A DNA stretch of 64,000 nucleotides from an uncultured Bacteriovoracaceae bacterium. GTDB lineage: Bacteria; Bdellovibrionota; UBA2428. Shown here one piece after another: positions 22,910-56,103 of this stretch; position 1 is the stretch's first letter, and each line of letters opens with the position of its first letter. Where the stretch lies: NCBI GenBank assembly GCA_964477895.1, contig CAYZFQ010000001.1:343750-407749 (forward strand). Direction: 5' to 3'. A model generated the notes under the pieces. It was given only the letters and a program-made list of their open reading frames with translations, was not told the DNA's origin and ran no database searches. Made by a program: the position numbers and the translations under genes.

Positions 22910-23737
22910 TTACAAGAGCTTCAGAGCAAGTCCAGTGCTTTGGTTCGCTTGAGCCAAAGTTGCTACACCGGCGTTCTGAAGAATTGAAGTCTTGGCAAGC
23001 TCGGCCGACTCTACAGCCAAGTCAGCGTCCTTGATTCGGCTGTTCGCTGCCGACAAGTTCTCACGGTAAACTTCGATGTTGTTAATTGTAGAGCTCATTC
23101 GGCTTTGAACCGCACCGAAGTTAGAGCGCATTCCGGCTACCTTTGCGATGGCTTCTTCAACGCTATCCAAAGTGTCGCGAGCCGAAGACTTGGAATCTAC
23201 AGATATGCCCGATACCCCAAGTGACGACACTGTAGCGTTAGCTTTGCTGGCGTCGTAAGTGATGCGGTTATTTTCGCTACCACGAATACCTACTTGGAAG
23301 TCGAGTTCGCTAGCGCTTCCGTCCAGCAATTTGGTTCCGGAATATTCGGTAGTTTGGGCGATCCGTTCCATTTCTTGTTTGAGTTGTTGCACTTCGATGT
23401 TTACGAAGCCACGTTCTTTTTCGCCGATAGTATCGGAAGCGGCTTGAGTGGCCAATTCACGAAGTCGAACCAAGATGTTCGAAGTTTCGCTCAGTCCACC
23501 TTCTGCCACTTGCACGAAAGAAATACCGTCTTGGGCGTTACGTTGTGCTTGGCCGAAGGCTCTGATCGATCCGCGCATTTGTTCGGAGATCGCGAGGCCG
23601 GCCACGTCGTCCATCGACTTGTTGATGCGATAGCCAGAAGACAGACGCTCCATGGCTTTCTCTAATCCTGAACCGTTTTGGCGCAGGTTGCGTTGCGCGT
23701 TCACGCTCGCAATGTTTGTTTGAATTCTCAGACCCAT
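22910..23737 (-). CDS. fliC: flagellin, 275 aa
   Basis: Conserved flagellin N-terminus MGLRIQTNIASVNAQRNL and C-terminus LQNAGVATLAQANQSTGLALKLL. Confidence 0.9.
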   Translation of the reverse strand: MGLRIQTNIASVNAQRNLRQNGSGLEKAMERLSSGYRINKSMDDVAGLAISEQMRGSIRAFGQAQRNAQDGISFVQVAEGGLSETSNILVRLRELATQAASDTIGEKERGFVNIEVQQLKQEMERIAQTTEYSGTKLLDGSASELDFQVGIRGSENNRITYDASKANATVSSLGVSGISVDSKSSARDTLDSVEEAIAKVAGMRSNFGAVQSRMSSTINNIEVYRENLSAANSRIKDADLAVESAELAKTSILQNAGVATLAQANQSTGLALKLL

Positions 23738-24059: not shown

Positions 24060-24893
24060 TCAACCGATTAACTTCAGAGCCATTCCAGTGTTCTGGTTGG
24101 CTTGAGCTAATACCGAAGTCGAAGCTTGAGTCTTCACGGTGTCACGAGTCAGGCTCGCAGTCACATCCGAGAAGTCAGTATCACGAATTCGGCTCTTAGC
24201 AGCGCTGAAGTTCTCGATCGCAACTTCCGTGTTGTTGATCGTAGAACCTAAACGGTTTTGAAGGGCACCGAGGTTAGCACGATTGCTGTTCAACACGATC
24301 AGCGATTTATCGAGAGCATCCAAGTTGCTTTGAGCAGCTTGTTTGGTTCCGATATCAACTTTGCTCAGGCCAAGCGAATCCAAAGTCACGTTGGTTTCGC
24401 CAGGATTGTAGCTAATACGGTCCAAGAATTCGTCGTTCTTCACACCGATTTGAAACTCAAGCTTTTCGCCTTCTCCGCGAAGAAGGGGCGTGCCGTTATA
24501 CTCAGTAGACTGAGCAATTCGTTGCACTTCAAGTTTCAATTGTTGGGCTTCACGGTTGAGGTATTCGCGCTCTTTTAATCCGATAGTGTCGGAAGCGGCT
24601 TGTACGCTCAACTCACGAAGACGAACGATCATGTTAGAAATTTCGTTCATGCCACCTTCGGCCACTTGAACGAAAGAGATACCGTCTTGAGCGTTACGCG
24701 CTGATTGACGGAAGCTTCGGATGTTGGCATTCAAGTTCTCGCTGATCGCAAGACCTGCCGCATCGTCGGCTGATTTGTTGATTCGCGAACCGGAAGAGAG
24801 TTTCTCATATCCAGACGCTAGTTCGGCTTGGTTCGTACGCAAGTTTCTTTGCGCGTTGATGGCCGACATGTTTGTATTAATTCGCATTCCCAT
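24060..24893 (-). CDS. fliC: flagellin (second tandem copy), 278 aa from ATG 24893
   Basis: MGMRINTNMSAINAQRNL... and ...LAQANQNTGMALKLIG. AGGAG SD lies 8 nt upstream of ATG 24893. The track ORF extends further upstream without an SD. Confidence 0.9.
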   Translation of the reverse strand: MGMRINTNMSAINAQRNLRTNQAELASGYEKLSSGSRINKSADDAAGLAISENLNANIRSFRQSARNAQDGISFVQVAEGGMNEISNMIVRLRELSVQAASDTIGLKEREYLNREAQQLKLEVQRIAQSTEYNGTPLLRGEGEKLEFQIGVKNDEFLDRISYNPGETNVTLDSLGLSKVDIGTKQAAQSNLDALDKSLIVLNSNRANLGALQNRLGSTINNTEVAIENFSAAKSRIRDTDFSDVTASLTRDTVKTQASTSVLAQANQNTGMALKLIG

Positions 24894-25238
24894 TTTTAGT
24901 CTCCTGTATAAAGGTTCATAATTTTCCTTCCGTGTATAATTTCCAGGTGGAGCGTCCTGCCGGGACATCTCGCTTCATCCGAACCTGGGCTGCCATCAGT
25001 GGCATGTGGTTAAAGGTCAAAAAAAATTTTTAGGTCTATGACCGCCGCAAATGAATACTTCACTCGCAGAGTCCATCCTTAGCCCGAACAAAATGTTCTC
25101 AGTCTTCCGAACCCCCTTTCTCTCTGACCCGTAACCGCGTGCACCTTTAGGCTGTGAGCCTCGAGGAGCGTTTAGCGCCACGGAATCTTCAAGCTGAACC
25201 GAGAAAGTTTTTTGACGACTTTTCTCGATACATAGTGT

Positions 25239-26553: not shown

Positions 26554-28478
26554 TTCGGATTCGCTTGTATATTCTCAGTGGCTTCTTTGTGGGAATTTTT
26601 GCCCTTATTCTTTTCCGATCTTTTCAATTGCAACTTTTGCCTCACGAAAAGATAGAGGCTCTGGCCCGACGTCAATCTTCTCAAAAAATTGAAATCGCGG
26701 GACGGCGTGGGCCCATTAGCGATCGAGAAGGGCGCATTCTGGCCGTTTCTGTGAATTCTCAGTCACTCTTTGCCCACCCTCATCAAATTGCAAATCCTCA
26801 AAAAACTGCGCGCGCCCTCGCTCGCAAATTGGGATTGTCGGAGCGCCACATCTTGAACCGACTTAAGGAAAATCCCGAAAAAAGATTTGTTTGGCTTTCC
26901 CGTCAGCTTTCCAATCGTCAGCTTCAGAACTTATCCAAAATGAATCTGAAAAATTATCCTGGCATAGGTGTGGTGCAGGAATATCGTCGGGAATACCCGC
27001 GGGAAACTCTAGCTTCTCATATCCTGGGCTTTGTATCCTTAGACGGCAAAGGACTTGAGGGAATCGAAAAAAAGTTTGATGCTCAGTTGCAGGGCGAAGC
27101 CTCTGAGCTGAGTTTCAAGAGAGATGCCAAGGGCCGTGCACTTTTTCTGAGTTCTGAAAAACGCGATAGTCTTAGCCATGCCGGTCAATCGGTGGAGCTC
27201 TCGATCGACGCCAACCTCCAAGCTTCTACGGAACGGGCTTTGGCTCGGTCCGTAGCAAAATTTTCGGCCAACGGTGGGATTGCCATTGTGATGGAACCCA
27301 ACAGCGGTGAGATTCTTGCGATGGCCGTAAGCCCCGGATTCAATCCTAACGAAGCGGGAAAATTTGCAGCCGAACAGCGTCGCAACCGCAGCATCACCGA
27401 CCCCATTGAGCCCGGAAGTGTGGTGAAGCCCCTGGTGGTGGCCAAAGCCATCGAAGATAAAATTGTCACAGAAAAAAGTTTAATCAATGCCGGCCAAGGC
27501 TTTGTTCGGGTAGGTCGTAAAACAATTGGCGAGGCGGATGCAAAACATCGTTTTGACCGCGTAAGTATTGCAGATCTGATTCGAGTCTCGAGCAATGTGG
27601 GGACGGTTTTTCTACAGCAGAAAATGGGTTTTGAGAAAGTCGAAGAGATTTTTTTACGACTGGGTTTTAATAAATCGACGGGGCTTGAGGTGCCCGGCGA
27701 ATCTCGCGGACTTTTTAAGCCCGTGGGGCGCAATCAATTGCTCGAACAAGCGACAATGAGTTTTGGCCAAGGTTTTGCGATTACGCCGATGCAGATTATC
27801 AAGGCCTACGCGCCTCTAGCTAACGGAGGTTTTAATATCCAACCTCGTTTGGTCAAAAACGCTCCTTTGGCAGAGGGTGGAGTGCCCGACCGAGTTTTCT
27901 CTGAGTCCACGGTTGTAGCTATGCGAAAAATTTTAGAGCGGGTGGTGCAAGACGAAGGCACGGGCGTTCAGGCCAAAGTTGAGAATTTTTCTGTGGCTGG
28001 GAAAACCGGAACTTCCCAAAAAGTAGATTTCAAGAATGGTGGGTATAAAAGTGGGGCGTACTGGTCGTCCTTTGTGGGCTTCTTACCGTCTCAAAAGCCT
28101 CGATTTTTAATCTACACGATGATCGACGAAGCTCGGGGCCTTGAGTACTACGGAGGGCAAGTTGCAGCCCCTCTCTTTTCGGAGATCGCTCGGGATGCCT
28201 TGCGGCTGATACCCGAAAAACGAACTCCCCCTAAAGCCCAGGCAGGAGTTCAGTTGGCAAAAAAAAATAAGAAGGTTCTTCCCGAGGCAAGACCTCCGCT
28301 GATGGAGAAGGATGGCCCAGAATCTTTGCAGGAATTGCCGCTTCGCCAGGCTTTGCGAAAGTTAGAAGGTCATAAGGCGCGAGTGGAAATTCTCAACGTG
28401 GGAACCAAGGTCGACACAGCCGAGTATATTTACGACAAAAATTCGGAGCTCACCAAGGTCCGACTCAGGCTACGGTAA
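26550..28478 (+). CDS. ftsI: peptidoglycan D,D-transpeptidase FtsI (PBP3-type), 642 aa
   Basis: Transpeptidase motifs SVVKP (SXXK) and KTGTS (KTG) plus an N-terminal membrane anchor. Confidence 0.9.
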   Translation: MIRIRLYILSGFFVGIFALILFRSFQLQLLPHEKIEALARRQSSQKIEIAGRRGPISDREGRILAVSVNSQSLFAHPHQIANPQKTARALARKLGLSERHILNRLKENPEKRFVWLSRQLSNRQLQNLSKMNLKNYPGIGVVQEYRREYPRETLASHILGFVSLDGKGLEGIEKKFDAQLQGEASELSFKRDAKGRALFLSSEKRDSLSHAGQSVELSIDANLQASTERALARSVAKFSANGGIAIVMEPNSGEILAMAVSPGFNPNEAGKFAAEQRRNRSITDPIEPGSVVKPLVVAKAIEDKIVTEKSLINAGQGFVRVGRKTIGEADAKHRFDRVSIADLIRVSSNVGTVFLQQKMGFEKVEEIFLRLGFNKSTGLEVPGESRGLFKPVGRNQLLEQATMSFGQGFAITPMQIIKAYAPLANGGFNIQPRLVKNAPLAEGGVPDRVFSESTVVAMRKILERVVQDEGTGVQAKVENFSVAGKTGTSQKVDFKNGGYKSGAYWSSFVGFLPSQKPRFLIYTMIDEARGLEYYGGQVAAPLFSEIARDALRLIPEKRTPPKAQAGVQLAKKNKKVLPEARPPLMEKDGPESLQELPLRQALRKLEGHKARVEILNVGTKVDTAEYIYDKNSELTKVRLRLR

Positions 28479-29911
28479 TGGGATTAAAAGATTTGCTCAT
28501 CCAAAAGTTTCCTGAAGGGATATGGAAGGATCGGCGATTGGTTTGGGACAGTCGGCAAACGGTGGGAGATGAGAATCCCGAATGGGTCTTTCTCCCCACG
28601 GACTATCCGCTTTCGCCGGAGATCCAGCAAGATTTATTGAAGCGGCCTCAGGCCCAGCCCCTCGTTAAATCTCGTAAAGAGTGGGGAATGATTTGGTCGC
28701 AAATCTATCAGAACCCTAGTGCCCGCCTCAAAGTGTGGGGAGTTACTGGCACCAATGGAAAAAGCACCACGGTGGCCATCTTGCGCCAACTTATTCTTGC
28801 CTTTGGTGAAGACGTGGCGGAGTTGGGAACCTTGGGGCTTAGCTACTATAAAAACTTGAAAAGCGAAGAAGCTCAGCAACACTGGGAGACCGGTTTCACA
28901 ACTCCCGAGGCTCCCACATTGCAGAACTTAATGGCCCAGCTTCGGGACGCGGGCGTAAAAAATCTTGTGATGGAAATTAGCAGTCATGCTTCGACCTTGG
29001 GGAGAGTGGCAGGAGTGGATTTTGATGGACTCATATTCACCAATCTCAGCCAAGATCACTTAGACTTTCATCACAGCATGGAGGCCTACGAAGCGGCAAA
29101 GGCGGATTTGTTTTTAAAGTACTTGCCCCTAGAAAAATCGCACAAACGCAAGTGTGTAGCTATTAACACTCAGGATCCTGCGGGACTTCGAATATTTAAA
29201 CAGTTGCCTGAAGATTTTGCGGCGAAGCCTTTTGCCCCGCAGAAAAACTATCAAATACTTAAGAGTGAGGCCTGCGGATTAAAAATTCAAAGCGAATGGG
29301 GAGACGTTGAGAGCCCTCTAGTCGGGGACTTTAATGCCGAAAATATTATGGGAGCTCTCTCCCTGCTCAGCTTTCACCCGGCCTTTAGTTTTGACCGAGC
29401 TCGGGATGTTCTTAAAAATTTTAATGGTCCCCGAGGCCGTATGCAAAAGGTTCCCGACCCTTTGTCCAGGCGACATGTTTTTGTGGACTATGCCCATAGT
29501 CCCGATGCCCTCGAGAAAGTTCTTCTCACTTTGCAGAAAATTAAAAAGCCTGGCCAAAAGCTTAGCGTGGTTTTTGGCTGTGGTGGAGATCGAGACCGTT
29601 TGAAGCGGCCCCTCATGGGGAAAATTGCCAGCCTTGTTGCCGACCGTATTATAGTTACGAGCGATAATCCGCGCGGTGAAGACCCTCAGTCCATAATTGA
29701 CGAGATTGCTTTGGGAATCTTAGCAAGAGAGGGCATGGAGTGGAGTGAGGAAGTGTCGCGTGAAAAGGCCATCGGCCTAGCCATTCAAGCCATGAAAAAT
29801 GATGACTTAGTTCTGATTGCGGGCAAGGGCCATGAGGAATTTCAAATTATCGGCACTCAGAAAAATCGCTTTTCCGATTTTGAAGTGGCCCTCTCCTTCA
29901 TGCAATCTTAA
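28478..29911 (+). CDS. murE: UDP-N-acetylmuramoyl-L-alanyl-D-glutamate--2,6-diaminopimelate ligase MurE, 477 aa
   Basis: Mur ligase P-loop GVTGTNGKSTT and the MurE DNPR motif (TSDNPRGEDP). Confidence 0.9.
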   Translation: MGLKDLLIQKFPEGIWKDRRLVWDSRQTVGDENPEWVFLPTDYPLSPEIQQDLLKRPQAQPLVKSRKEWGMIWSQIYQNPSARLKVWGVTGTNGKSTTVAILRQLILAFGEDVAELGTLGLSYYKNLKSEEAQQHWETGFTTPEAPTLQNLMAQLRDAGVKNLVMEISSHASTLGRVAGVDFDGLIFTNLSQDHLDFHHSMEAYEAAKADLFLKYLPLEKSHKRKCVAINTQDPAGLRIFKQLPEDFAAKPFAPQKNYQILKSEACGLKIQSEWGDVESPLVGDFNAENIMGALSLLSFHPAFSFDRARDVLKNFNGPRGRMQKVPDPLSRRHVFVDYAHSPDALEKVLLTLQKIKKPGQKLSVVFGCGGDRDRLKRPLMGKIASLVADRIIVTSDNPRGEDPQSIIDEIALGILAREGMEWSEEVSREKAIGLAIQAMKNDDLVLIAGKGHEEFQIIGTQKNRFSDFEVALSFMQS

Positions 29912-29918
29912 CTCTTAA

Positions 29919-29940
29919 TTCACGCAATCTTAATATTTGC
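29919..29940. promoter_or_regulatory. conserved motif TTCACGCAATCTTAAT (copy 1; GCAATCTTAA also at 29902) upstream of CHAP-like gene
   Basis: Identical 16-mer at 31362..31377 upstream of the metalloprotease gene. Each copy is followed by a C-run and a TACAAT/TATAAT -10-like hexamer. Confidence 0.4.
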
Positions 29941-29968
29941 CCCCACTTTTTTACGTACAATAGAAGAG

Positions 29969-30892
29969 GTGAAAAACATCGGGCTATCTATTTCTAAGGC
30001 CAGCCTAGGATTGATTTTTCTATTTGCAGTTGAGGAAGCGGCACAGACAAGTCCGGTTGAGGCCATTAGGCGGGGAAACACTCAAGAGGTGGTGACGGCG
30101 GCAAGAGAAGGCGCTCAGAATGTGATCGAGATTTCAAAAAGAGCACCCAAGTCTTCTTCACGTTCACCAGCGGCTTCAAAAGTTCCGAGTAAAAAATCAC
30201 CAAAGAAAAAGGCGAGTTCTGTGGGGGAGCCTGACGGCGGTCCTCCCACTTCGTCGGCAACCTTTAATTTTCAAGATGCCCAAGAGGTCGAGGATTCAGA
30301 CGACAGTCCACGATCTTCCAGCCGCTCGTCCGGCTTTTTTTCTAATTTCGGGCAAAGGTCTGGACACAGGAGCACCCCTAGCGGCGATAGTGATATCAAC
30401 GGCGAAGATAGAGAATCTTCCAAAGATGCTTGGAAGAACTTTAAAGGTGGAAAGTATCCCAATCTCGATCGCTTATTTGATTCTGCAATTAGGCTGTCTC
30501 GAGGAAAGTTTCCAAGAAATATGTGTTACCGAGCTGTAAAGCATATGCTCTACGATGCCGGCTGTTTACCCAATCAAAGCTTACAGAGTAACGATGCCCG
30601 TCGAGCTATTAATTTTTTAAATAACGTCAATAAGTTTCCGGGGCACTTTCAAAAAATCAGCGTTCGTAGTCCGGAGGCGGCGCCTCCCGGAGCTATTCTA
30701 GTTTTCGCTTTTGCTGGAAAAAGCTGTTCTACGACTATGAGACACTCAAAGTTTGCTGGGCACATCGAGATTAAGTCACCGGTAGGGTATCATCACTTCT
30801 CCACCCGCAGTGGGGCCTTTGGTCGTCAGTTGTGTGGAGCTTATATGCCCCTTAAGTGTGGTACTTATGGATCTAAGAAAGGAAAGCGATGA
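29969..30892 (+). CDS. secreted protein with disordered S/P/K-rich N-terminal half and C-terminal CHAP-like Cys/His peptidoglycan amidase/peptidase domain, 307 aa
   Basis: Signal peptide. Putative catalytic Cys in NMCYRAVKHML and His in AGHIEIKS about 75 aa later, the spacing and context typical of CHAP. Confidence 0.4.
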   Translation: MKNIGLSISKASLGLIFLFAVEEAAQTSPVEAIRRGNTQEVVTAAREGAQNVIEISKRAPKSSSRSPAASKVPSKKSPKKKASSVGEPDGGPPTSSATFNFQDAQEVEDSDDSPRSSSRSSGFFSNFGQRSGHRSTPSGDSDINGEDRESSKDAWKNFKGGKYPNLDRLFDSAIRLSRGKFPRNMCYRAVKHMLYDAGCLPNQSLQSNDARRAINFLNNVNKFPGHFQKISVRSPEAAPPGAILVFAFAGKSCSTTMRHSKFAGHIEIKSPVGYHHFSTRSGAFGRQLCGAYMPLKCGTYGSKKGKR

Positions 30893-31335
30893 AAGCTCTA
30901 AAAGTCATTATTCTCGGACTCCTTCTAAACTCCTCAGCATTTGCCCAGTCTCTTATGCAATTAAGGACCGAGGCTGGTGTTTTAGAGGCGGGACTAGAAC
31001 ACATTTTAGAAAAGAAAAAAGAGGAGCGAGCGGCCGGTATTCAAGCCATCGTCACTCGTTCTGTAGAAGTCCTTTCTAAAGCCGTTGAGGAAATGGAGAA
31101 AAGACCACCTGAGCCCTTGGTTTTGGAAAAATTCCTATCCCTTGCCCTAAAAATCAATCGCTACGAGGGAACTCTAGCGATGGCCGAAGTCTTTGTTCCT
31201 ATCTACGAGACAAAGGAACAAATTGCTTTGTTGGATTCTGTCCTTAGGCTTAAGAAATTCGACTCTAAAGAAGTGAAAAAATTTCGCGAAGAACTTAAGG
31301 CTAAGCGTCTCGAAGCTACCGAAGGAAACGGCTAA
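30889..31335 (+). CDS. secreted all-helical protein, 148 aa, translationally coupled to the CHAP-like gene
   Basis: Its ATG overlaps the upstream TGA (ATGA). Signal peptide LLLNSSAFAQS. Possible inhibitor/immunity partner (inference). Confidence 0.55.
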   Translation: MKALKVIILGLLLNSSAFAQSLMQLRTEAGVLEAGLEHILEKKKEERAAGIQAIVTRSVEVLSKAVEEMEKRPPEPLVLEKFLSLALKINRYEGTLAMAEVFVPIYETKEQIALLDSVLRLKKFDSKEVKKFREELKAKRLEATEGNG

Positions 31336-31361: not shown

Positions 31362-31377
31362 TTCACGCAATCTTAAT
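31362..31377. promoter_or_regulatory. conserved motif TTCACGCAATCTTAAT (copy 2) upstream of metalloprotease gene
   Basis: Exact 16/16 match to 29922..29937. Confidence 0.4.
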
Positions 31378-31412
31378 TATTTTTTAGCCCCTACTACCCG
31401 TATAATGACGTA

Positions 31413-33194
31413 GTGCGTTACGGAATTTCTATGGCAATTTTATTGGGTGCAATCCTCTCAGGTTGTGGCCAAAGCAAACTCTCCAAGCAGTTCAACTCGG
31501 CCGCAAAAAAGCAAAGCGACTTAGATAGCATGCAACTGGAACTTTTTAGGCGCAGTCCCACTATTGATGGGGCAAATTTTAGTCTTACAGCTCGGAGCAA
31601 TATCGATGGAGTCCCGCGCTCACCTATCAGCTTTCCCAACTTAAAATCAGTTACGGGAACTCTTCAGAGCTCGCAATTTGATGTGGTTGACGACTTAGCA
31701 CAACAGTATTCACCAAGTTTTTTTACCTGGGCTGGCAAACTAGTTCCTAACTTTAGTTCGGATTTTCGCACCCTCATGGCTTACTCCCACCTCCAAAAAG
31801 CTTACAACTATGCCCAGGGAGTTCTTGGCTCTTCTTATAATTTGGAAGATCCAATTTACGATCCCAACAGCACAAGTACGGCAGAAACCTTTCATGTCTT
31901 TCCCCTCATTGTTGAAGCCAACAAAGTGGGCGACGCCACTCAGACTCAGTACGATTATCTCAATCGGAGCATACTTTTTTACCGAGACTATATCGAAACT
32001 CGCTATGCTACCGCCGATGAAGCCGATGTGATTTATCATGAGTTTGGGCACGTGGTGCAGCATGTGATCAACCCCCTTCTTTTCGTCGTGCCCGGCAATC
32101 GTGACCTCAATGCCATGTATGAAGGCCTTAGCGACTTTTTTGCCGCAGCTGTTGCTCGCGACGATAAAGTTTTGACTTATCTTGAGAGCAATTCCCCACC
32201 GCTTTTTTCAGATACTAATCAGCAGGGTCCCATTCACTCTCGTAGGATAGATAATAACCTTGCCTTCCCTGCGGCCTTCACCGGAGCCCATCACTTAGAC
32301 GGAAGAGTGCTGGCCAGTGCCCTTAACGAGTTTAGAAAGTATCTTCAGGGCAGCGGCATGGGTGAAGAGGCCGCCTGGGACAATACCTTTAAACTTTCCC
32401 ATACGGCCCTTAACCTGATGACTTCCAACTTGAGTTTTCGTGGTTACAGCAGCGCTCTTATTTCGCAATGTGGAAGCTTGAGTTGGTGTGACGCCACCAA
32501 GTCGTCCGTACTTTCGAGAATTCTTACAGAACGAGGTATACGCCTAGCCACGCTCAGTGCCCCTGTGACAACGGCACTGCCTATGTATGAAAGTCCAAGT
32601 TCGGGACTTTCTCTAAACTCTGTCCCACTTGGCTTTATGGAAATTCCCGGGCTCTCCAATCAAAACGGAAAGGTGGATCCCTGTGAGGTGGTCCTCATTT
32701 ATCCTAACGTCAAGGGTCACTCCACCCACGAGCTGACCAACGCCACCATGCAACTTCTCAATCTAGCGGCGCCCATTGGCTTTACGCCTTATTCGGCAAG
32801 AAACTCTGCTGGAGACGTGGGATCCGTGGAGCGAAACTGGATAGGTGAGCAGGTCACCAACAGCGGTGTGGTTCCGGCGCACTATACAAACATTACGCTA
32901 AAAGATTTTCCACGTTTGGCTCCCGGGGAAAACTATTCCGCACTGGCTTCCAATTTGAATTCGCGTCTGTACCAGACCCAGCAGAAGGCCTACTTTTCTC
33001 GCCGACCGAGCTCTACTACTTTTCCGGCGACTACGGGATGGATGGTGCGGGCGACTCAGGGTCAGGCCCGGATCCAGGCTAACTTTAAGATGATTGCTCG
33101 GTCGGCTTCTTCGCTTAATGACGTCTACGGAGCGCAGACTTTTAGTCAGCAGGTTACGATTGAGTCTACGAGTCCGCCGGTGAGCTGCAATTGA
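31413..33194 (+). CDS. thermolysin-like (M4/M36 gluzincin) zinc metalloprotease lipoprotein, 593 aa
   Basis: Lipobox LSGC. HEXXH in VIYHEFGHVVQH, and a downstream Glu motif MYEGLSDFF resembling the third zinc ligand (NEAFSD/EGWSD). Confidence 0.65.
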   Translation: MRYGISMAILLGAILSGCGQSKLSKQFNSAAKKQSDLDSMQLELFRRSPTIDGANFSLTARSNIDGVPRSPISFPNLKSVTGTLQSSQFDVVDDLAQQYSPSFFTWAGKLVPNFSSDFRTLMAYSHLQKAYNYAQGVLGSSYNLEDPIYDPNSTSTAETFHVFPLIVEANKVGDATQTQYDYLNRSILFYRDYIETRYATADEADVIYHEFGHVVQHVINPLLFVVPGNRDLNAMYEGLSDFFAAAVARDDKVLTYLESNSPPLFSDTNQQGPIHSRRIDNNLAFPAAFTGAHHLDGRVLASALNEFRKYLQGSGMGEEAAWDNTFKLSHTALNLMTSNLSFRGYSSALISQCGSLSWCDATKSSVLSRILTERGIRLATLSAPVTTALPMYESPSSGLSLNSVPLGFMEIPGLSNQNGKVDPCEVVLIYPNVKGHSTHELTNATMQLLNLAAPIGFTPYSARNSAGDVGSVERNWIGEQVTNSGVVPAHYTNITLKDFPRLAPGENYSALASNLNSRLYQTQQKAYFSRRPSSTTFPATTGWMVRATQGQARIQANFKMIARSASSLNDVYGAQTFSQQVTIESTSPPVSCN

Positions 33195-34495: not shown

Positions 34496-35821
34496 ATGAA
34501 GGATATTTCCCGTCTTTTCTATTTGGGATTATTCGTTTTTGCGCCGGCACTTCGTGCCCAAGATACACCTGTGTTGGATAATACTAATAACGATGAGGTG
34601 GTTGAGAAGGCCAAAAAGGACGCCGAAGAGAGTGTGGCAAATCTTGAGAAGAATAAACAGAAGTTAGATGAAGCCGCTCAAGCCGGTGAATCGCTCCGCG
34701 AAAAACTTAAAGAATCTTTTTCTAAGTCTAAGGGTGGGGGCAGTAAGGACTCCGGCAATTCCGATAAGGAAGCGGGCGGAGCTGGAGCTCCGGCAGGAAC
34801 AACTACAGGCACTGGACATGGCAAAGCCGATGAGAATGGCGAAGCTATGGCTCCCCGCAAAGACGGCTCTACAGGTTATTACGCAGAATCGAAGGACCCC
34901 TCCGAAGTCATGGGTCCCAAAGAAGCCTACCGAAAACAAAACTTTAAAGGTCCGGCTGAATCTAACTTAAACTGGGAAGAAATAAGCGCACGACGCAGAG
35001 CTCGTTCGGACGCCCCCTTTGAACTCGGTTCGGACGCACTCAATGAATTTAAAGATGTGAATTGTGAAAATGGACAGTTCCCCCAGAACTCCCTTCAATT
35101 TATGTTGGAGGCGGGCCGAAATCGCCTAGAACAAGAGGGCAATCCCTCGGCCGAACGGTGTCGGATGGTCGGAGCCCAAGTTGCCAAACTGGCGGGTATG
35201 GCCGAAGGAGAAAGTAGTTTTAACTTTTCCTGCCTAACTTTGCACGGATCGGAAAAAGAGTCTGGTCGAGCAGGCTTTCGCTCCGTTTACACCCCCGACA
35301 ATAAACGATGGCAAATGTCTTCCTATGCATCTTATAAAAATGCACTCTCTGAGTTTGGTGGGAGTGTTAACCACACCACCAACAATGGGGTGATGCAGAT
35401 TTCTCCAGATCAGTTTATTCGTAAGGGAGCTACAGAACTTCTGGATTTCTACTCAAGCGGAAGTCCCGACGAAATCCTGAAAAAGTGTGGAACCGGTCGA
35501 GCATTCCATGACAGCGCCGATGCTCTGGCTGGAGAAATTGAAGAGTTAGCTGGACGTCGTACTTTGATGTTCAAGGAAAGAAATGGTCAAAAAATCTACA
35601 CTAACTTCGCTCGGAGCGCGCGCGACGTAAGTAGATGGCTAACCATATGTCCTGCCCTGAACTTTGCTATGGCTCAAATAATTTTAGATGACTACGGGTA
35701 CTCAGGCGGAGATTCATCCAAAATTCGAGCCTATTTCGGCACGGCCGCCAAAAAACCTCGTTGTGAACAAGTCATCCAACAAGCCCTCTGCGGCAGCTCA
35801 GGCCAGCTAGCAAGTAATTAG
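34496..35821 (+). CDS. hypothetical secreted protein, 441 aa, with charged low-complexity N-terminal region
   Basis: Signal peptide LFVFAPALRAQ, then a K/E/G-rich tract, then a Cys-containing globular part. Confidence 0.55.
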   Translation: MKDISRLFYLGLFVFAPALRAQDTPVLDNTNNDEVVEKAKKDAEESVANLEKNKQKLDEAAQAGESLREKLKESFSKSKGGGSKDSGNSDKEAGGAGAPAGTTTGTGHGKADENGEAMAPRKDGSTGYYAESKDPSEVMGPKEAYRKQNFKGPAESNLNWEEISARRRARSDAPFELGSDALNEFKDVNCENGQFPQNSLQFMLEAGRNRLEQEGNPSAERCRMVGAQVAKLAGMAEGESSFNFSCLTLHGSEKESGRAGFRSVYTPDNKRWQMSSYASYKNALSEFGGSVNHTTNNGVMQISPDQFIRKGATELLDFYSSGSPDEILKKCGTGRAFHDSADALAGEIEELAGRRTLMFKERNGQKIYTNFARSARDVSRWLTICPALNFAMAQIILDDYGYSGGDSSKIRAYFGTAAKKPRCEQVIQQALCGSSGQLASN

Positions 35822-35891: not shown

Positions 35892-36077
35892 ATGAACGTT
35901 AAGAAGAACAAAAAAAGAGGCCAAACTTCGGTGGAGTACATTCTCATTATCGGAGTCATTGTGGGCGTGATTATGCTTTTCGGAAAAACATTCCGTGAAA
36001 AAATCGCGGTTATCACGGATGGTCTTTTCTCGAACATCAACAGCAATATTCAGAGCAGCACCAACCCCGGAGGTTGA
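35892..36077 (+). CDS. flp: Flp/Fap-family type IVb pilin 1, 61 aa
   Basis: Basic leader then G/QTSVEYILIIGVIVGVIML: the Flp motif, with a prepilin-peptidase site after Gly and the conserved E-Y. Confidence 0.8.
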   Translation: MNVKKNKKRGQTSVEYILIIGVIVGVIMLFGKTFREKIAVITDGLFSNINSNIQSSTNPGG

Positions 36078-36078
36078 T

Positions 36079-36264
36079 GTGAAAAAACGAAAAGGACAGG
36101 CTCTTATCGAGTATGTCCTTCTCGTTGCCCTGCTTTCTACCGCGACATTGGTCTACGTGAAATTTTACGGCAAAGAAGTGTTGGGGAATGGTCTTAGGGC
36201 TTTGAAGGGGAGGATGGGGGATTGTATCTCTCATACGAATCGACAATGCAAATCTGGCCAATAA
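36079..36264 (+). CDS. flp: Flp-family pilin 2, about 62 aa from GTG 36079
   Basis: KKRKG/QALIEYVLLVALLSTATL. GGAGG lies 5 nt upstream of the GTG. The track ORF start at 35995 overlaps flp1. Confidence 0.7.
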   Translation: MKKRKGQALIEYVLLVALLSTATLVYVKFYGKEVLGNGLRALKGRMGDCISHTNRQCKSGQ

Positions 36265-36524
36265 AGAAGAAGCGAAAAAAGAATAAACGCAGCGGTCAGA
36301 CCGCCGTGGAATATATTCTGCTTCTGGCCGTTCTCACGAGTGTCCTTGTAGCAGGTCGCAAAGCTATGATGGAACCCCTCAATCAATTTTTTTCGATTTA
36401 CGTGCGCGGTTTTTCCAATACCTATAATCCCGAGACTTCCGCATCCACAGGCGGCAAAGATTTTACCCTTTATTACCTCAACGGCGGCTCCCCTGCCCCT
36501 ACCTCCACGGTCAAGGTACGTTGA
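36246..36524 (+). CDS. flp: Flp-family pilin 3 with C-terminal extension, about 92 aa
   Basis: KRSG/QTAVEYILLLAVLTSVLV. Start assigned at the internal ATG 36246. Confidence 0.6.
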   Translation: MQIWPIKKKRKKNKRSGQTAVEYILLLAVLTSVLVAGRKAMMEPLNQFFSIYVRGFSNTYNPETSASTGGKDFTLYYLNGGSPAPTSTVKVR

Positions 36525-36525
36525 T

Positions 36526-37146
36526 ATGAAAGGCGCATCTTCACGTTCTAAAAGCGGCCAAACAGTTATTGAGTTTTCTTTTGTTATTATTCTTTTTGTT
36601 TTTATGATGATGGTCACCATCAATGCGGTGATTGCCTTTTGCACCCACCAGTACGTATCTTATGCCGTTTTTATGTCGGCTCGGGCCTACCAGGCTGCGG
36701 GGGGCACGGCCGACGAATCTCACACCCGAGCTGTGGCAGCTCTTCAATCCTACCTACCGGGCATTCCCGACGACAGCGGTGAAGGCCTTAGTATTCCTCT
36801 CACCATGCCGGGGATGGCCAAGCCCATTGCCACTATCGAGGGCGTGAACGTGCGTTCCCCCCAGCTTTATGACTATGGCCCCGCTGGTGAAATCGCAAAC
36901 GTAGAAATTTATGTGGATTTTTCTGTTCCTTTTGTGGACCTCCCCTTAGGACCGGAAATGCGGGCGCGGTTCGGAAAAATTCCTCTCCGGGCCAGTTCAT
37001 TTTTTGGCCGAGAAGCCTCACAGCAAGAATGCCAAGCTTTTTTTAAAAGATTCTTAGAGTCTTTTAAGATTTCCGGAGAAGTCGCGGGAGCTTACGAGAA
37101 CTTTTCCTCGGAGTTTTTTGGAAATATGGAGGACAACGGATGTTGA
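36526..37146 (+). CDS. tadE: TadE-like pseudopilin, 206 aa
   Basis: N-terminus SKSGQTVIEFSFVIILFVFMMM, as in the TadE/TadG N-terminal domain. Confidence 0.65.
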   Translation: MKGASSRSKSGQTVIEFSFVIILFVFMMMVTINAVIAFCTHQYVSYAVFMSARAYQAAGGTADESHTRAVAALQSYLPGIPDDSGEGLSIPLTMPGMAKPIATIEGVNVRSPQLYDYGPAGEIANVEIYVDFSVPFVDLPLGPEMRARFGKIPLRASSFFGREASQQECQAFFKRFLESFKISGEVAGAYENFSSEFFGNMEDNGC

Positions 37147-37604
37147 TCACTTCAAAAAAAGGCCAGGCCATTACAGAGTTTCTTCCGGCCTGCATTATTT
37201 TATTTATGGTGATGACGGCCGCCCTTTCGTATTACCGGGTGATGCGCGCGGCTTCCATTCGCCAAGAAGTGGTGCGCAATTTGACCTTTGCTAAAATTCG
37301 CAATTCTGGACCTCTCACCACCACACCCGACCAACTCGCCGGTGGTTCAGGGTCGGGACTTCCGCGACTTAACATGGAGCGCATCAGCGTTTCCGGTGGG
37401 CGCAATGCCATTGCCGAGACTCCGGTGATGAATGCCGGAAATCACGACTTTATTCGCTTTGATTCCAACTGTTTCACCGTTTATCCGGCGGATCCCAAGG
37501 TCACGATAAAACTGGGTCCCCTCATGATGGCCGGTGACCTAGGGGATTTAGATTTTAGCACCTACGCCGTGATGTACCGGGGCCCGGGGGGCGGCTGTCC
37601 TTAG
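37140..37604 (+). CDS. TadE/TadF-like pseudopilin, 154 aa
   Basis: KKGQAITEFLPACIILFMVM N-terminal motif. Overlaps the previous gene by 7 nt. Confidence 0.6.
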   Translation: MLITSKKGQAITEFLPACIILFMVMTAALSYYRVMRAASIRQEVVRNLTFAKIRNSGPLTTTPDQLAGGSGSGLPRLNMERISVSGGRNAIAETPVMNAGNHDFIRFDSNCFTVYPADPKVTIKLGPLMMAGDLGDLDFSTYAVMYRGPGGGCP

Positions 37605-37662
37605 GCCAATTTAAGAATTTTCCGAAAAGTTCCGACAAGAACTTGAAAGAAATGGGGGATTT

Positions 37663-38580
37663 GTGAACCAGTCGAGAGCCTTCTTGATGAGCATCGTGTT
37701 TGCCGGCCTCGCCATGCTTTTGGTTTACTTTTACGTTTCCGAGCGTGAGAGCAGCATTTCCGCCGAATACGGCACGCCCATTGCGGTGATCGTTGCCGCC
37801 AAAGACATCAACGAGTTCGAAGAAATTCAGCAAAGCATGTTGGCCGTAAAAGTCGTGCCCATGAAATTTGCTCAGCCAGGCGCTTACAACATGATCAAAT
37901 CGGGTAAGACCGAAAAACTTTCGCAGTTTACGGTAGAAACTTTTGTGGGCGCCGTGGCTTCGGCTCCCATTCGTAAGGGTGAGCAGGTCCTCTTAAATAA
38001 AGTTTTACTCAAGGGCGTGGAAACAGGCTTGGCCTCACAAGTCGCCATTTCGCGCCGAGCTCTTTCGATTCCCGTGAACGACACCACGGGAGTGACTAAA
38101 CTTTTAAAACCCGGCGACCGCGTGGATCTTATCGCGAGCGTTCAGTACAAGGGTCAGGGCGGTCAGGAATCTGAAGTTAAAACCCTCATGCAAAACGTTC
38201 ACGTTTTGGCCGTGGGTGAAGTGATCCAAAATAAAATTCCTACAGCCTTTGAAGTGGATCCTCTTTCAGGAACCCGAAAGGCTTTGAACCTTCGGGGGAG
38301 CCGCCAGTTCGGAACCATCACCGTAGAGGTCACCCCCGGCGAAGCTCAAAATATTATATGGGCTCTTCAAAACGGTTCTGAAATTTATACCAGCCTTCGA
38401 AATCCCGTAGATCGTGTGGTGGCCTCCGTCCCCACATCAACTGTGGACGAAGTCTTGGGACCTAACTCCAAAAAGGCCGAGCGGGAGCGAGTCAAACCCG
38501 TTATCAAGCCCGTGGAAAAAGCTCCGCCTCCGCCACCGCCTTCCAGCTTCAGCAACTCGGGTGGGGGATTATTTAAATAA
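37663..38580 (+). CDS. cpaB: Flp pilus assembly protein CpaB/RcpC, 305 aa
   Basis: N-terminal TM anchor then SAF/beta-rich domains. Gene order conserved with the Tad locus. C-terminal PPPPPPSS tract. Confidence 0.75.
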   Translation: MNQSRAFLMSIVFAGLAMLLVYFYVSERESSISAEYGTPIAVIVAAKDINEFEEIQQSMLAVKVVPMKFAQPGAYNMIKSGKTEKLSQFTVETFVGAVASAPIRKGEQVLLNKVLLKGVETGLASQVAISRRALSIPVNDTTGVTKLLKPGDRVDLIASVQYKGQGGQESEVKTLMQNVHVLAVGEVIQNKIPTAFEVDPLSGTRKALNLRGSRQFGTITVEVTPGEAQNIIWALQNGSEIYTSLRNPVDRVVASVPTSTVDEVLGPNSKKAERERVKPVIKPVEKAPPPPPPSSFSNSGGGLFK

Positions 38581-38581
38581 T

Positions 38582-40414
38582 ATGAGAAAGTCTTTCTTAA
38601 AGTTTTCTCTTTTGGTACTCGGAGTTTTTATAGGCTCCCTTCGAGCTCAGGACGCCGAGCCGGCTCCAGATTCCTCAACTAACCGAAATCCAGCCATGGT
38701 TCCTCCGGCGGGTTCACCGGCCGAAGCTGAGCCCGCACCCACTCCCTTGGCTGAAGAAACCCCAGCTCCCACTCCGCTTAAGGAAACCCTTTCATTAATA
38801 GACGGGATTAAAAGCGATGTTCCTGGATCCATTGCAGATACCAACGTTAACCGAATCATGGAATCTAAGGTTAAGTCCCAAACTTTAAATCCTGACAAAG
38901 GCTTTGAAGACCTCTTCTTAACTAAGAACTCCAGTGCGGTATTAGACATTCATAAACTGCCCGTGAAAAATCCCGGGGAAGATTTGGAATGGCTCCAAAC
39001 CAATATTGGCATTGTGGCCAAATCAGAAAAAGACCCCTCAGGTGGTTTTCGTGTTTATGCGGGAACCCAAGTGGGTTCGACTCAAATTCTTGTTTACGAG
39101 CGCAAGGCCGCTGTTGCCGGTAAACGAGATCGTGGAAATCTCCTTAAAGTCTACCGAGTAACGGTAACCAGCGAAGACCTTCTTTCACTGCTCCAAGAAA
39201 TTAAGGCCCTAATCGGAAATGTGGAAGGTCTAGATATTCGAGTGGTGGGCACCCAAGTCGTGATTGATGGAGCGGTCCTTGTCCCCAAAGACATGCGCCG
39301 AGTGGTGGCCGTGGTGAGCAAATATCAAACAGAGAAAAAGCCAGTGATTAACTTAGCTGAGATCTCTCCTCTAACTACCAAGCTTCTGGCTGAAAAAATG
39401 GAAGAAGAAATTGCGGGTGGAAAAGACCGACCCCGCGAAATTAAAGTTAAAGTCGTGAACGGAAGGTTTTTCCTAGAAGGTGCGGTAGACAAACAGGCTG
39501 AGCGTGAAACCGCCGTTCGAATTTGCCAAGCCTACATTTCAGAGCGCTACACCCTTGAAAACTCAGCCTCGGTGCAATCGCCTCGAATTCCAGGCCTTAA
39601 TGAATGTGTGCTGATGGTAAAGATTCGCCAAGGCCAGCCGGCGGATCCCGATCCCATCATTAGTGTACGCGTGGATTTTGTTACTTTAGATCGAAACTAC
39701 CTTAAGAGCTTTAACTTTAGGTGGGCGCCTGGAATGAACTTGAAGGGCGAAGTGGGTTATTCCAGTGACGCCGGAAAATTTCTCACTTCCTTTGTGGGCC
39801 TCTTGGATAATCTATTTCCCAAGTTAGAAACAGCGGCTTCTCATGGACATGCGCGTATTCTTAAAACGGCAACTCTTCTTGTGCGAGACGGCGAGAACGC
39901 GGCCAAAGGTGGGGGAGCGCCGCCCGAGGCTCAAATATCTGAAGTGTTAAAACTTCCTGTAATGATTCAGGGCACCGCTAATTCGCCAGGATCTTTCACC
40001 ACGGTTCCGGTTGAAACCTACATTAAAATTTTGGCCAAATCGGTGCCAGGGTCCGACAAAGTGAATATGGATATCTCAGCCAAGCAGTCTGAGATTAAAA
40101 GCCAAAACAAAGAGCAAGGTCCCACCGTCTTAGACAACATGATCCAAACCAGTATCGTGGTGGCCAACGGTGAAAGTGCGGCCTTAGGTGGCTTGATTGC
40201 CGAACGTCGCAACGTAGATATCACCCGGGACCCGGCCTCCGATGGTAACGCGGCCACTTCAGCCCAAAATAAATTTGAACTCTTCGACATCGGTCGAGGT
40301 CATAGCTTCAGCGACTCCAAAGTGCAGTTTATTGTCTTTGCCACACCCGAGAAACTGCGCACACCCTCTGAAGGAACCGAAAAACTTAAGCGTAAGTTTA
40401 GGTTGAGGAAGTAA
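38582..40414 (+). CDS. cpaC: Flp pilus secretin CpaC/RcpA, about 610 aa from ATG 38582
   Basis: Signal peptide MRKSFLKFSLLVLGVFIGSLRAQ. C-terminal secretin signature VVANGESAALGGLI. The track ORF begins inside cpaB. Confidence 0.8.
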   Translation: MRKSFLKFSLLVLGVFIGSLRAQDAEPAPDSSTNRNPAMVPPAGSPAEAEPAPTPLAEETPAPTPLKETLSLIDGIKSDVPGSIADTNVNRIMESKVKSQTLNPDKGFEDLFLTKNSSAVLDIHKLPVKNPGEDLEWLQTNIGIVAKSEKDPSGGFRVYAGTQVGSTQILVYERKAAVAGKRDRGNLLKVYRVTVTSEDLLSLLQEIKALIGNVEGLDIRVVGTQVVIDGAVLVPKDMRRVVAVVSKYQTEKKPVINLAEISPLTTKLLAEKMEEEIAGGKDRPREIKVKVVNGRFFLEGAVDKQAERETAVRICQAYISERYTLENSASVQSPRIPGLNECVLMVKIRQGQPADPDPIISVRVDFVTLDRNYLKSFNFRWAPGMNLKGEVGYSSDAGKFLTSFVGLLDNLFPKLETAASHGHARILKTATLLVRDGENAAKGGGAPPEAQISEVLKLPVMIQGTANSPGSFTTVPVETYIKILAKSVPGSDKVNMDISAKQSEIKSQNKEQGPTVLDNMIQTSIVVANGESAALGGLIAERRNVDITRDPASDGNAATSAQNKFELFDIGRGHSFSDSKVQFIVFATPEKLRTPSEGTEKLKRKFRLRK

Positions 40415-40417
40415 ATC

Positions 40418-42607: not shown

Positions 42608-43473
42608 ACGTTTGGCTTATCTCCATACTTTCAGCGCTGCTTTTCTTTTTTTCGCTGTATCTTTCTTTTGATTATTGGTTCGAAAAACTCTGGCTGGGTA
42701 ACATGGTCAAAACCACAGAAGAAGCCGTGCGAGTTTTTGAAGATGTCTTTCAGCCCAAAACTATTGAACAAATGCGCAACCTGCAACTATCTATTGCCGG
42801 TGGCTCTTCGGCTCTAATTTTATTCCTGTGTTGGCCGGAAGTGGCCATAGGTATCCCCGCAGCTTTAATTACTTTTTGGTACACCTGGAAGCTGCCCCTT
42901 GTTTATATCAAGTATTGGGTGCGCCCCCGTCGAATTACCCAGTTTTCCCACCAAATGGTGGACGCTCTGACTCTTATGGCTAACGGTCTTAAGTCCGGGC
43001 TCAACATCTCCCAGGCTTTGCAAATTGTGGTGGACGAGATGCCGGCCCCCATTCGGGAAGAGTTTGGTTTAGTGCTCAACGAGAATAAAATCGGGGCCAC
43101 CTTAGAGAAGGCTTTTGAGAACATGGGAGCTCGGATGCCGTCAGAAGACGTGAGCATGTTTGTGACCTCGGTAAACATTTTGCGCGAAACAGGCGGTAAC
43201 ATCGCCGAAACTTTTGAAACCATTACCAAAACCATCCGCGAACGCATCAAATTACAGAATAAAATATCAGCCATGACGGCCCAAGGGATGACTTCAGCCT
43301 TCATTGTAGGAGCCATGCCCTGGGGCATTGGCATCATGCTCTATGGGATCGACCCTGACACGATGCGGCCAGTCTTCACTCGGGCCGCGGGCATTGTGAT
43401 CTTAATGATTATTACGGCACTCGAGGTGCTAGGTTTCTACGTGATCGTCAAAATTGTGAGGATCCGCGTATGA
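42604..43473 (+). CDS. tadB: TadB/TadC-type (T2SS-F domain) inner-membrane platform protein, 289 aa
   Basis: Three TM segments with a T2SS-F fold. Only one copy present. 4-nt overlap with the ATPase gene. Confidence 0.75.
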   Translation: MNVWLISILSALLFFFSLYLSFDYWFEKLWLGNMVKTTEEAVRVFEDVFQPKTIEQMRNLQLSIAGGSSALILFLCWPEVAIGIPAALITFWYTWKLPLVYIKYWVRPRRITQFSHQMVDALTLMANGLKSGLNISQALQIVVDEMPAPIREEFGLVLNENKIGATLEKAFENMGARMPSEDVSMFVTSVNILRETGGNIAETFETITKTIRERIKLQNKISAMTAQGMTSAFIVGAMPWGIGIMLYGIDPDTMRPVFTRAAGIVILMIITALEVLGFYVIVKIVRIRV

Positions 43474-43553
43474 TACAGAGGGCCCATGAAAAACTATTGA
43501 CGCCTTACCGGATGAGAAACCGGGTTAGACTATTAAAAAGTTCAGGAGGGATT

Positions 43554-45149: not shown

Positions 45150-45161
45150 TAGGGGAAGAAA

Positions 45162-45584
45162 ATGAAAATAAAAATTTTATCTCTTCTCAGTATTTTTACT
45201 CTCACAAGCTCCGCTTTTGCCCAAGGCTACATTCAGGGTAGGGGCGGCGGAGGCTGGGATCAGCAAGGCGGCACCCAAGAAACGATTCGTTATCGTGAAA
45301 GCTATAACCAGCAGGGCGGTCAGCAGGGCGCCTACGTGAATTGTATGCCGAATTGTCCACCCTCGGTGGTGATGCCACAGCGCTCCCAGGTGCTAGTTGC
45401 TGAAACCGGTGACATCATCAATGGTTGCGACACGGGCCGCTTTGATAAAAAAGAATGGCGCAACGACTACCGTGATGAAGGCGACGAACGCGAGCACGTG
45501 ATCAGAGAAAGAGTGTATGTACCACCTCGGTCAGAAGGCGATGGTAAAGAAGTGCCTCCAAGAAGTAACGGTTTAAAGAAGTAA
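45162..45584 (+). CDS. small secreted Gln/Gly-rich, four-Cys protein, 140 aa; candidate hit-locus (Bd0108-like) protein
   Basis: Signal peptide. GGGGWDQQGGTQ...NQQGGQQG repeats encoded by imperfect direct repeats CAGCA(A/G)GGCGG at 45261, 45309 and 45321. Position immediately after the tad genes and the YD-repeat gene. Confidence 0.5.
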   Translation: MKIKILSLLSIFTLTSSAFAQGYIQGRGGGGWDQQGGTQETIRYRESYNQQGGQQGAYVNCMPNCPPSVVMPQRSQVLVAETGDIINGCDTGRFDKKEWRNDYRDEGDEREHVIRERVYVPPRSEGDGKEVPPRSNGLKK

Positions 45585-55987: not shown

Positions 55988-56103
55988 ATGCCCTTATCGA
56001 CATCTTTTTAAAAAAGATTAGTCGGAGATTTGGCGCATACTTTATTCAAGAGGGGGGGGCTGCTTATTGCGGATTTCGCTAAGTGGTTCTAGTCTTAGGA
56101 GAT

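Follow-up and report, generated by a model that had tools for sequence, protein, structure and literature searches.

A translationally coupled gene pair next to murE

The window, by which we mean the whole stretch of 64,000 nucleotides analysed here, comes from an uncultured Bacteriovoracaceae bacterium and contains a pair of overlapping genes directly 3' of murE. The first gene encodes a CHAP-like enzyme and the second a smaller partner protein. The main features of the pair are:

29969-30892, forward strand: CHAP-like enzyme gene, GTG start, 307 aa
30419-30889, forward strand: C-terminal 157-aa domain of the enzyme (residues 151-307), a putative papain-like, CHAP-related thiol amidase domain according to an AF2 model and an hhalign alignment to Gss
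30524-30526, forward strand: codon of the proposed nucleophile Cys186, aligned with Gss Cys59
30761-30763, forward strand: codon of the proposed general base His265, aligned with Gss His131
about 30878-30886, forward strand: GGA-rich, Shine-Dalgarno-like stretch AAAGGAAAG for the partner gene, within the 3' end of the enzyme gene (read from sequence)
30889-31335, forward strand: partner gene, ATG start, 148 aa, with a predicted Sec signal (residues 1-19), a helix-rich mature part and a C-terminal Gly-Asn-Gly
31324-31332, forward strand: codons of the partner's C-terminal Gly-Asn-Gly, invariant in complete partners

Both ORFs were found exactly where an earlier note on this DNA had placed them, and so was the overlap that it described, in which the partner ATG (30889-30891) and the enzyme TGA (30890-30892) are joined in an ATGA. 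Because each of the two has homologues elsewhere, they are to be regarded as real genes and not as chance ORFs. The enzyme starts with a hydrophobic signal-like segment (residues 1-24, with a non-canonical cleavage site), which is followed by a helical stretch, a low-complexity linker and the C-terminal catalytic-type domain (residues 151-307). The linker (residues 56-165) contains 24% Ser, 11% Lys and 9% Pro and only 16% hydrophobic residues, in agreement with the S/P/K-rich N-region noticed earlier, while hydrophobic residues amount to 37% of the C-terminal domain, which is strongly basic (pI 10.3). The signal peptide that had been claimed for the partner also reads as a canonical Sec signal with an A-x-A site: the protein begins with MKALKVIILGLLLNSSAFA, and QS follows the predicted cleavage point. 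In the mature partner, helix-forming residues make up 63%. From this layout, the genes are predicted to be co-transcribed and translationally coupled, and both products have predicted N-terminal export signals.

Upstream of the pair are rsmH, ftsL, ftsI and murE; Pfam confirms murE, and the names of the other genes come from reading their ORFs. The ORFs annotated in the 34 kb that remain of the window include no further dcw gene, so the interruption of the dcw cluster after murE, pointed out in the earlier note, is borne out within the window. The pair is followed by three signal-peptide ORFs that have no family matches in Pfam and NCBIfam scans, a Tad/Flp pilus locus and an RHS-repeat protein. 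The 3' part of the window also contains several large ORFs without assignment, a class II tRNA synthetase and citrate synthase. A 441-aa neighbour was considered as a possible lytic transglycosylase, and the resemblance was not significant. No Rfam family covers the intergenic regions.

Among 80 murE loci of other genomes, none has relatives of the pair or of the three ORFs that follow it, and these loci are therefore uninformative on the ancestral state. The loci that do contain relatives of the enzyme, described below, have different flanking genes, with NADH dehydrogenase genes in one and SBP_bac_3-like genes in two. Since the flanking genes differ between loci, the unit of conservation is, by this comparison, the pair itself, and its place beside murE is a peculiarity of this genome.

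Repeats in the putative promoter regions

A 16-bp motif is repeated upstream of the enzyme gene and upstream of the gene that follows the pair, each time close to a -10-like box:

29897-29912: degenerate third copy of TTCACGCAATCTTAAT, forming the murE 3' end
29919-29934, forward strand: first copy of the 16-bp motif TTCACGCAATCTTAAT, upstream of the enzyme gene, an exact repeat of the second copy
29956-29961, forward strand: -10-like hexamer TACAAT, 7 nt before the enzyme GTG start (read from sequence)
31362-31377, forward strand: second copy of TTCACGCAATCTTAAT, upstream of the next gene, a 593-aa HEFGH lipoprotein-like ORF (31413-33194)
31401-31406: -10-like TATAAT, 6 nt before the GTG at 31413

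The two exact copies lie 21-23 nt upstream of the -10-like box, and the GTG start is found 6-7 nt beyond it. From the position of TACAAT, the transcript of the enzyme gene may be leaderless or have a very short leader; a generic sigma-70 scan did not call this hexamer. The repeats could be thought of as a recent insertion scar or target-site duplication. However, it seems more likely that TTCACGCAATCTTAAT is a regulatory site common to both genes, through which the pair and the secreted proteins encoded downstream would be regulated together, because the flanks of the copies have diverged while the 16-mer itself is perfect and stands at the same distance from the -10-like box and the GTG.

Orphan proteins from a sparsely sampled lineage

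Neither the enzyme nor the partner has a match in Pfam or NCBIfam. Both are singletons among about 15 billion proteins, and in word-seeded searches of 5.8 billion cluster representatives each protein matched itself alone. However, clustering of about 15 billion proteins at 90% identity leaves the MurE and the citrate synthase of the window as singletons too. By these counts, the source lineage is therefore very sparsely sampled, and orphan status alone means little. The closest MurE found in species-representative genomes, in a pattern-seeded and non-exhaustive scan, is 42% identical.

No match was found by tblastn in plasmid and phage records or in a scan of viral contigs. HMMER profile searches of PDB sequences gave noise alone (TolB, PafA, designed helical repeats). 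Two PDB matches, 4hz9 (a Tae3-Tai3 entry, E = 1.3) and 9jdd (a C39-like peptidase, E = 0.76), are marginal and were not used as evidence. The PHROGs endolysin matches, one family member each, are probably due to the PG_binding_1 domain of the relative P0006 and not to the catalytic domain.

A rare family of C-terminal domains

An exhaustive phmmer search with residues 151-307 against 1.84 billion representatives detected six remote relatives (E = 1.5e-7 to 7e-4). A profile built from these six gave six more (E = 9e-25 to 1.6e-7), and two further loci came from a metagenome scan. All relatives are unnamed metagenome proteins; a signal peptide is present in most, as is a low-complexity N-region that varies between them. 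With about a dozen members found among billions of sequences, the family is rare. In one member, P0006, the domain is fused to PG_binding_1 (E = 4.6e-10).

The alignment shows three motifs: C-Y-R-x-V-K-x-x-L, which contains Cys186, A-P-x-G-A-I-x-V and G-H-x-E-I, and among these the Cys and A-P-x-G are invariant. The only exception for the Cys is the first domain of P0003, a tandem copy that has Ala there; the other 14 of 14 copies keep it. The His of G-H-x-E-I is replaced by Asp in five of the 14 domain copies, including P0010, whose locus has a partner, and hence the Cys-His dyad is not universal in the family. Most relatives have S-D about 12 residues after G-H-x-E-I, and at this position the window protein has H-H (His275/His276). 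A survey of papain-like enzymes reports a widely varying third residue (Ser, Cys, His, Asp) but describes no such variation for the His (PMC10318531). The conserved residues of the family cluster at the canonical catalytic positions.

Remote relationship to CHAP amidases

The domain in the window has no match to the Pfam CHAP family (PF05257) even at E <= 10. Among its 12 relatives, one (P0014) reaches Pfam CHAP with E = 0.0088 and 17 bits, below the 26-bit cut-off. No Pfam match to NlpC/P60 (PF00877) was found for the window domain or for the family. More sensitive profile alignments were made with hhalign, in which a 14-sequence family profile was the query and genuine domains from annotated records were the targets. 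Against the E. coli Gss CHAP amidase (residues 1-200), the alignment scores 32.8 (P = 1.3e-4, 83 columns). In the controls, the highest score was 18.4 in 60 shuffles of Gss and 22.4 in 399 unrelated natural segments of 200 residues. The alignment brings Cys36 of the family (Cys186 of the enzyme) onto Cys59 and His115 (His265) onto His131, and Cys59 is the residue mutated in PDB entry 3a2y, titled 'Gsp amidase C59A'. For a second CHAP domain, that of phage phi11 LytA, the match is short and non-significant, yet in the correct P-x-x-A-x-P-G-D-x-V-V-F register, and for E. coli MepS (NlpC/P60) the hhalign probability is 0.2%.

A moderately confident AF2 model of the domain, based on a 12-sequence alignment, has a pLDDT of 72.9 and a pTM of 0.74. 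In this model the Cys lies in the first turn of a helix (36-46) and the His begins a strand (115-120), which is followed by a hairpin. As modelled, this Cys-helix and His-strand layout is the papain-like arrangement. The full 307-aa protein, predicted from the single sequence, gave no usable model (pLDDT 39.8). Foldseek with the domain model found no match at E < 0.05, with TM-scores of at most 0.49, and the weak, non-significant matches are enriched in Tae4, Gsp amidase, NlpC/P60 autolysins, CHAP lysins and C39 peptidases.

Taken together, the domain is likely to be a divergent member of the papain-like CHAP/NlpC-P60 cluster, closest to CHAP. As judged from these searches, it lies outside the Pfam CHAP family as now defined, and the link to CHAP is a remote superfamily relationship. 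The CHAP type assigned in the earlier note stands in this sense, i.e. as remote homology to Gss with Cys and His in register, but not as a family match in Pfam or NCBIfam.

The partner family and its co-occurrence with the enzyme

Co-occurrence of the partner with the hydrolase had been set beforehand as a test of the pair, and it is seen in part. Using a partner HMM, a partner homologue, one copy each, was found directly downstream of the enzyme gene in five of nine distinct loci, i.e. in the window and in the following four:

L083 (enzyme homologue P0011): ATGA overlap, then a 114-aa signal-peptide protein
L084-086 (enzyme homologue P0010): 12 nt gap, then a 153-aa signal-peptide protein
L088 (enzyme homologue P0014): 19 nt gap, then a truncated partner
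L089: ATGA overlap of the enzyme homologue, then a 144-aa signal-peptide protein

The ATGA overlap of the window is thus shared with L083 and L089, while short gaps are found in L084 and L088. In the other four loci, L081, L082, L087 (a short contig) and L090, the partner HMM found no homologue, and because of these four the partner is not obligatory for the family. The enzymes without a partner mostly belong to a distinct short subgroup (P0012, P0013).

The partners are related by sequence (BLASTP E = 5e-5 between the window and L084, E = 3e-14 between L089 and L084). Overall identity is just 18-30%, and despite this all four complete partners end exactly in Gly-Asn-Gly-stop. No relatives of the partner family were found in Pfam or PDB, and none among known immunity families. 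By these comparisons, the pair is conserved across deep divergence.

Proposed function of the pair and alternative readings

We suggest that the pair consists of a Sec-exported, CHAP-like peptidoglycan amidase and its cognate periplasmic inhibitor. This reading as a whole is tentative, and we give it a probability of roughly 0.45. The 307-aa protein would be exported through the Sec pathway. Its C-terminal domain would act as a thiol amidase or peptidase in which Cys186 is the nucleophile, His265 the base and the third residue probably His275 or His276. The bond that it cleaves would most likely be an amide in the peptides of peptidoglycan. The partner would be made from the same transcript through translational coupling and be exported to the same compartment, where it would bind the enzyme as a cognate inhibitor, serving as a self-protection or latency factor. 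Possibly, its invariant C-terminal Gly-Asn-Gly sits in the active-site cleft of the enzyme.

The different parts of this proposal draw on different evidence. Peptidoglycan is the probable substrate in view of the PG_binding_1 fusion in P0006 and of what enzymes of the CHAP/NlpC-P60 cluster predominantly do (PMC10318531). That the two proteins interact is suggested by conserved synteny and translational coupling. Binding and inhibition in the periplasm of the producer are proposed by analogy with Tae4/Tai4 and Bd3459/Bd3460, discussed below.

Synteny and translational coupling cannot, however, separate inhibition from activation or chaperoning. The partner could instead be a positive factor, comparable to the regulators of housekeeping autolysins: a chaperone in the periplasm, an adaptor for export or secretion, or a subunit that activates or targets the CHAP-like enzyme. 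The pair would then serve remodelling of the cell's own wall beside the dcw genes. The position directly 3' of murE fits this idea, and the four family members without a partner are easier to understand if the partner is accessory than if it is an antidote that the cell cannot do without. However, the dcw linkage is not conserved, as elsewhere the neighbours are NADH dehydrogenase subunits or SBP_bac_3-like, the partner has no similarity to known activators or adaptors, and the enzymes lacking a partner are mostly the distinct short subgroup. We consider a positive factor unlikely.

It is also possible, though rather improbable, that the substrate of the enzyme is not peptidoglycan and is instead another amide or the partner itself. 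The enzyme could process the Gly-Asn-Gly of the partner, or, much as a sortase or an L,D-transpeptidase anchors its substrate, transfer the partner via a thioester to an amine, for example a polyamine or the mDAP of peptidoglycan. The closest detectable relative, the Gss amidase, is no peptidoglycan enzyme and acts on a glycine amide; it cleaves the amide formed by the C-terminal glycine of glutathione. The retention of the Gly-Asn-Gly end at such low overall identity would also suit a substrate role. Further, CHAP and papain-like enzymes include amidases and transferases that do not act on peptidoglycan (PMC10318531), which counts for this alternative. Against it, PG_binding_1 in P0006 speaks for a setting in the cell wall, partnerless family members would be left with nothing to act on if the partner were the substrate, and no precedent was found in the literature. 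The idea is entirely inferential.

From the same features it can be speculated, with a still lower chance of being right, that the two genes encode a so far undescribed two-component envelope system in which the CHAP-like thiol enzyme works on or through the Gly-Asn-Gly of the partner. An acyl-enzyme would form at the terminal glycine, followed by ligation to peptidoglycan or another amine, or else Gly-Asn-Gly would be a pseudo-substrate latch that is released on secretion. Finally, the family could consist of inert or repurposed papain-like binding domains, with a structural or signalling role of the pair in the envelope, as the His to Asp changes and the Ala of the tandem copy in P0003 might indicate, but this is very unlikely given the Cys in all other copies, the Cys and His of the window protein in register with Gss and the conservation at catalytic positions.

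Returning to the amidase-inhibitor reading, it would, if true, define a Sec-dependent, T6SS-independent branch of the papain-like amidase/immunity theme. It would also provide an annotation handle for orphan secreted proteins of sparsely sampled lineages, and a small and tractable enzyme and inhibitor with which the protection of a producer's own wall could be studied. Independently of function, two protein families outside Pfam, NCBIfam and PDB are described here, one of catalytic domains related to CHAP and one of helical partners that invariably end in GNG. By its conservation the pair is solid as a module, and everything said about what it does we infer. The impact is modest owing to the rarity of the family, unless the GNG tail reflects new chemistry; ligation through GNG, if true, would be a new protein-anchoring chemistry.

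Comparison with known systems

The only statistically supported homology is to Gss, the representative of CHAP (PF05257), and in this alignment the nucleophile Cys and the His line up. The family and Gss share a further detail, as the strand before the His has 'G-A' and not 'G-D', with A-P-x-G-A-I-L-V in the family and A-P-V-A-G-A-L-L-I-W in Gss; the GD motif of CHAP enzymes is described in PMC10318531. However, Gss is cytoplasmic and fused to a synthetase, and its substrate is a small-molecule thiol conjugate, whereas the window protein has a predicted export signal, no Pfam CHAP match and a dedicated partner that is itself predicted to be exported.

In gene arrangement, the pair resembles Tae4-Tai4, as well as Tae1/Tse1-Tsi1 and Tae3-Tai3, where one gene of a two-gene operon encodes a small (about 160 aa) papain-like Cys-His amidase. 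PMC3695027 describes Tae4 as a papain-like amidase (Cys44/His126/Asp137) that is encoded in a bicistronic operon and neutralised by the periplasmic, purely alpha-helical Tai4. As in that system, the downstream gene of the window encodes a signal-peptide-bearing protein that is helix-rich, judged from its composition. Compared with Tae4 as given in the same text, the spacing from Cys to His is 79 residues in the window protein versus 82, and from His to the acidic residue about 12 in the relatives of the window protein versus 11. Tae4 is also the second-ranked, non-significant Foldseek PDB match to the AF2 domain model.

The differences are as clear. The Pfam Tae4 and Tai4 models match neither the enzyme family nor the partner family, and no Tae4 or Tai4 chain was matched in PDB sequence searches. 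There are no T6SS genes among the annotated ORFs of the window, and none were called in the related loci. Unlike Tae4, the window enzyme has its own Sec-type signal-like N-terminus and a long disordered linker, and at the third catalytic position it has His-His instead of Asp. The partner family, unlike Tai4 as described in the available text of PMC3695027, which mentions no GNG, has the invariant C-terminal GNG. Going by sequence and by T6SS delivery, the pair is not of the Tae/Tai type, while the bicistronic arrangement is present. A literature search found no description of a Sec-dependent CHAP/partner pair of this kind.

A functional analogy comes from Bdellovibrio, where the ankyrin protein Bd3460 gives self-protection against the DD-endopeptidase Bd3459 (PMC4686830), and it is this kind of arrangement to which the earlier note alluded. 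There, a secreted peptidoglycan enzyme crosses the periplasm of its own producer and is neutralised by a co-encoded periplasmic protein (PMC4686830). No sequence relationship exists between the two pairs, and the folds differ for enzyme and partner alike: Bd3459 is a PBP4-type serine endopeptidase and Bd3460 an ankyrin-repeat protein, whereas the window pair combines a papain-like thiol enzyme with a non-repeat helical partner. By analogy, we propose that the window pair follows the same logic of self-protection.

Repeat around the gene pair

The genes for the CHAP-like enzyme and its partner, the predicted exported protein encoded directly behind it, are bracketed by exact copies of a 16-bp direct repeat with a spacing of 1443 bp, and murE ends in a third, degenerate copy that makes up its final codons.

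Within 29897-29934: TTCACGCAATCTTAAT, exact copy
31362-31377: TTCACGCAATCTTAAT, exact copy

A -10-like box lies 21-23 nt downstream of each exact copy, and a GTG start follows 6-7 nt beyond. This layout suggests a common operator or promoter element, and the leaders at both GTG starts would be very short or absent. There are no further copies with up to three mismatches elsewhere in the 64 kb, and the repeat region has no match in Rfam.

Genes downstream of the pair

The 16-bp upstream motif is common to the enzyme gene and the first of the ORFs below, which lie downstream of the pair.

31413-33194: 593-aa ORF, lipoprotein-type signal (…LLGAILSGC) and HEFGH zinc-protease-like motif
34496-35821: 441-aa signal-peptide ORF containing GESSF…NGVMQISPDQF

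The 593-aa ORF has no matches in Pfam or NCBIfam. The motif of the 441-aa ORF, which has no Pfam match, resembles the ES…GLMQI signature of lytic transglycosylases; BLASTP against E. coli Slt70 aligned the motif, at a non-significant E-value of 9.9.

Partner and enzyme homologues

All four complete partner proteins, with overall identities of 18-30%, end exactly in Gly-Asn-Gly-stop.

Window, 30889-31335: partner
L083, 1061-1405: partner homologue
L084, 1244-1705: partner homologue
L089, 1459-1893: partner homologue

This tail is not known to fit any C-terminal sorting signal.

A divergent enzyme homologue is found at a further locus, L090.

L090, 3788-4612: enzyme homologue, motifs GGVCALGVRESL…AAPPGAILVF…GHVTIKG

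Its frame stays open without a stop into a signal-peptide-like segment, MMTWLNAPALALSLAGSMMAPTNA, and then through a helix-rich region to the contig end. This read-through ORF may be an enzyme-partner fusion, or it may be an artefact of assembly or frame; the partner HMM detects nothing in it.

Genomic context and lineage

The dcw genes of the window are closely preceded by a flagellin gene, and a second ORF of similar size may be another flagellin.

24060-24968, minus: flagellin gene (Flagellin_N and Flagellin_C)
22910-23737, minus: ORF of similar size

The lineage of the source genome is very sparsely sampled: MurE (28478-29911) and citrate synthase (56083-57255) are singletons at 90% identity among ~15 billion proteins, and the best match that a scan of GTDB species representatives gave for MurE has 42% identity.

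The window also holds a Tad/Flp pilus locus.

35892-45584: Tad/Flp locus, then RHS-repeat protein and 140-aa ORF

The locus contains two or three Flp-type pilins, TadE, RcpC/CpaB, a secretin, TadB/C and an ATPase that is a fused CbiA(TadZ-like)-T2SSE(TadA), and is directly followed by the 559-aa RHS-repeat protein (DUF6531 and RHS_repeat) and the 140-aa ORF. The Bdellovibrio hit locus has Tad genes next to those for an RHS-repeat protein, Bd0109, and a small protein, Bd0108 (PMC3818213). The Tad genes, RHS-repeat protein and 140-aa ORF of the window parallel this layout, which is not proof of a Bdellovibrio-like organism but hints at one.
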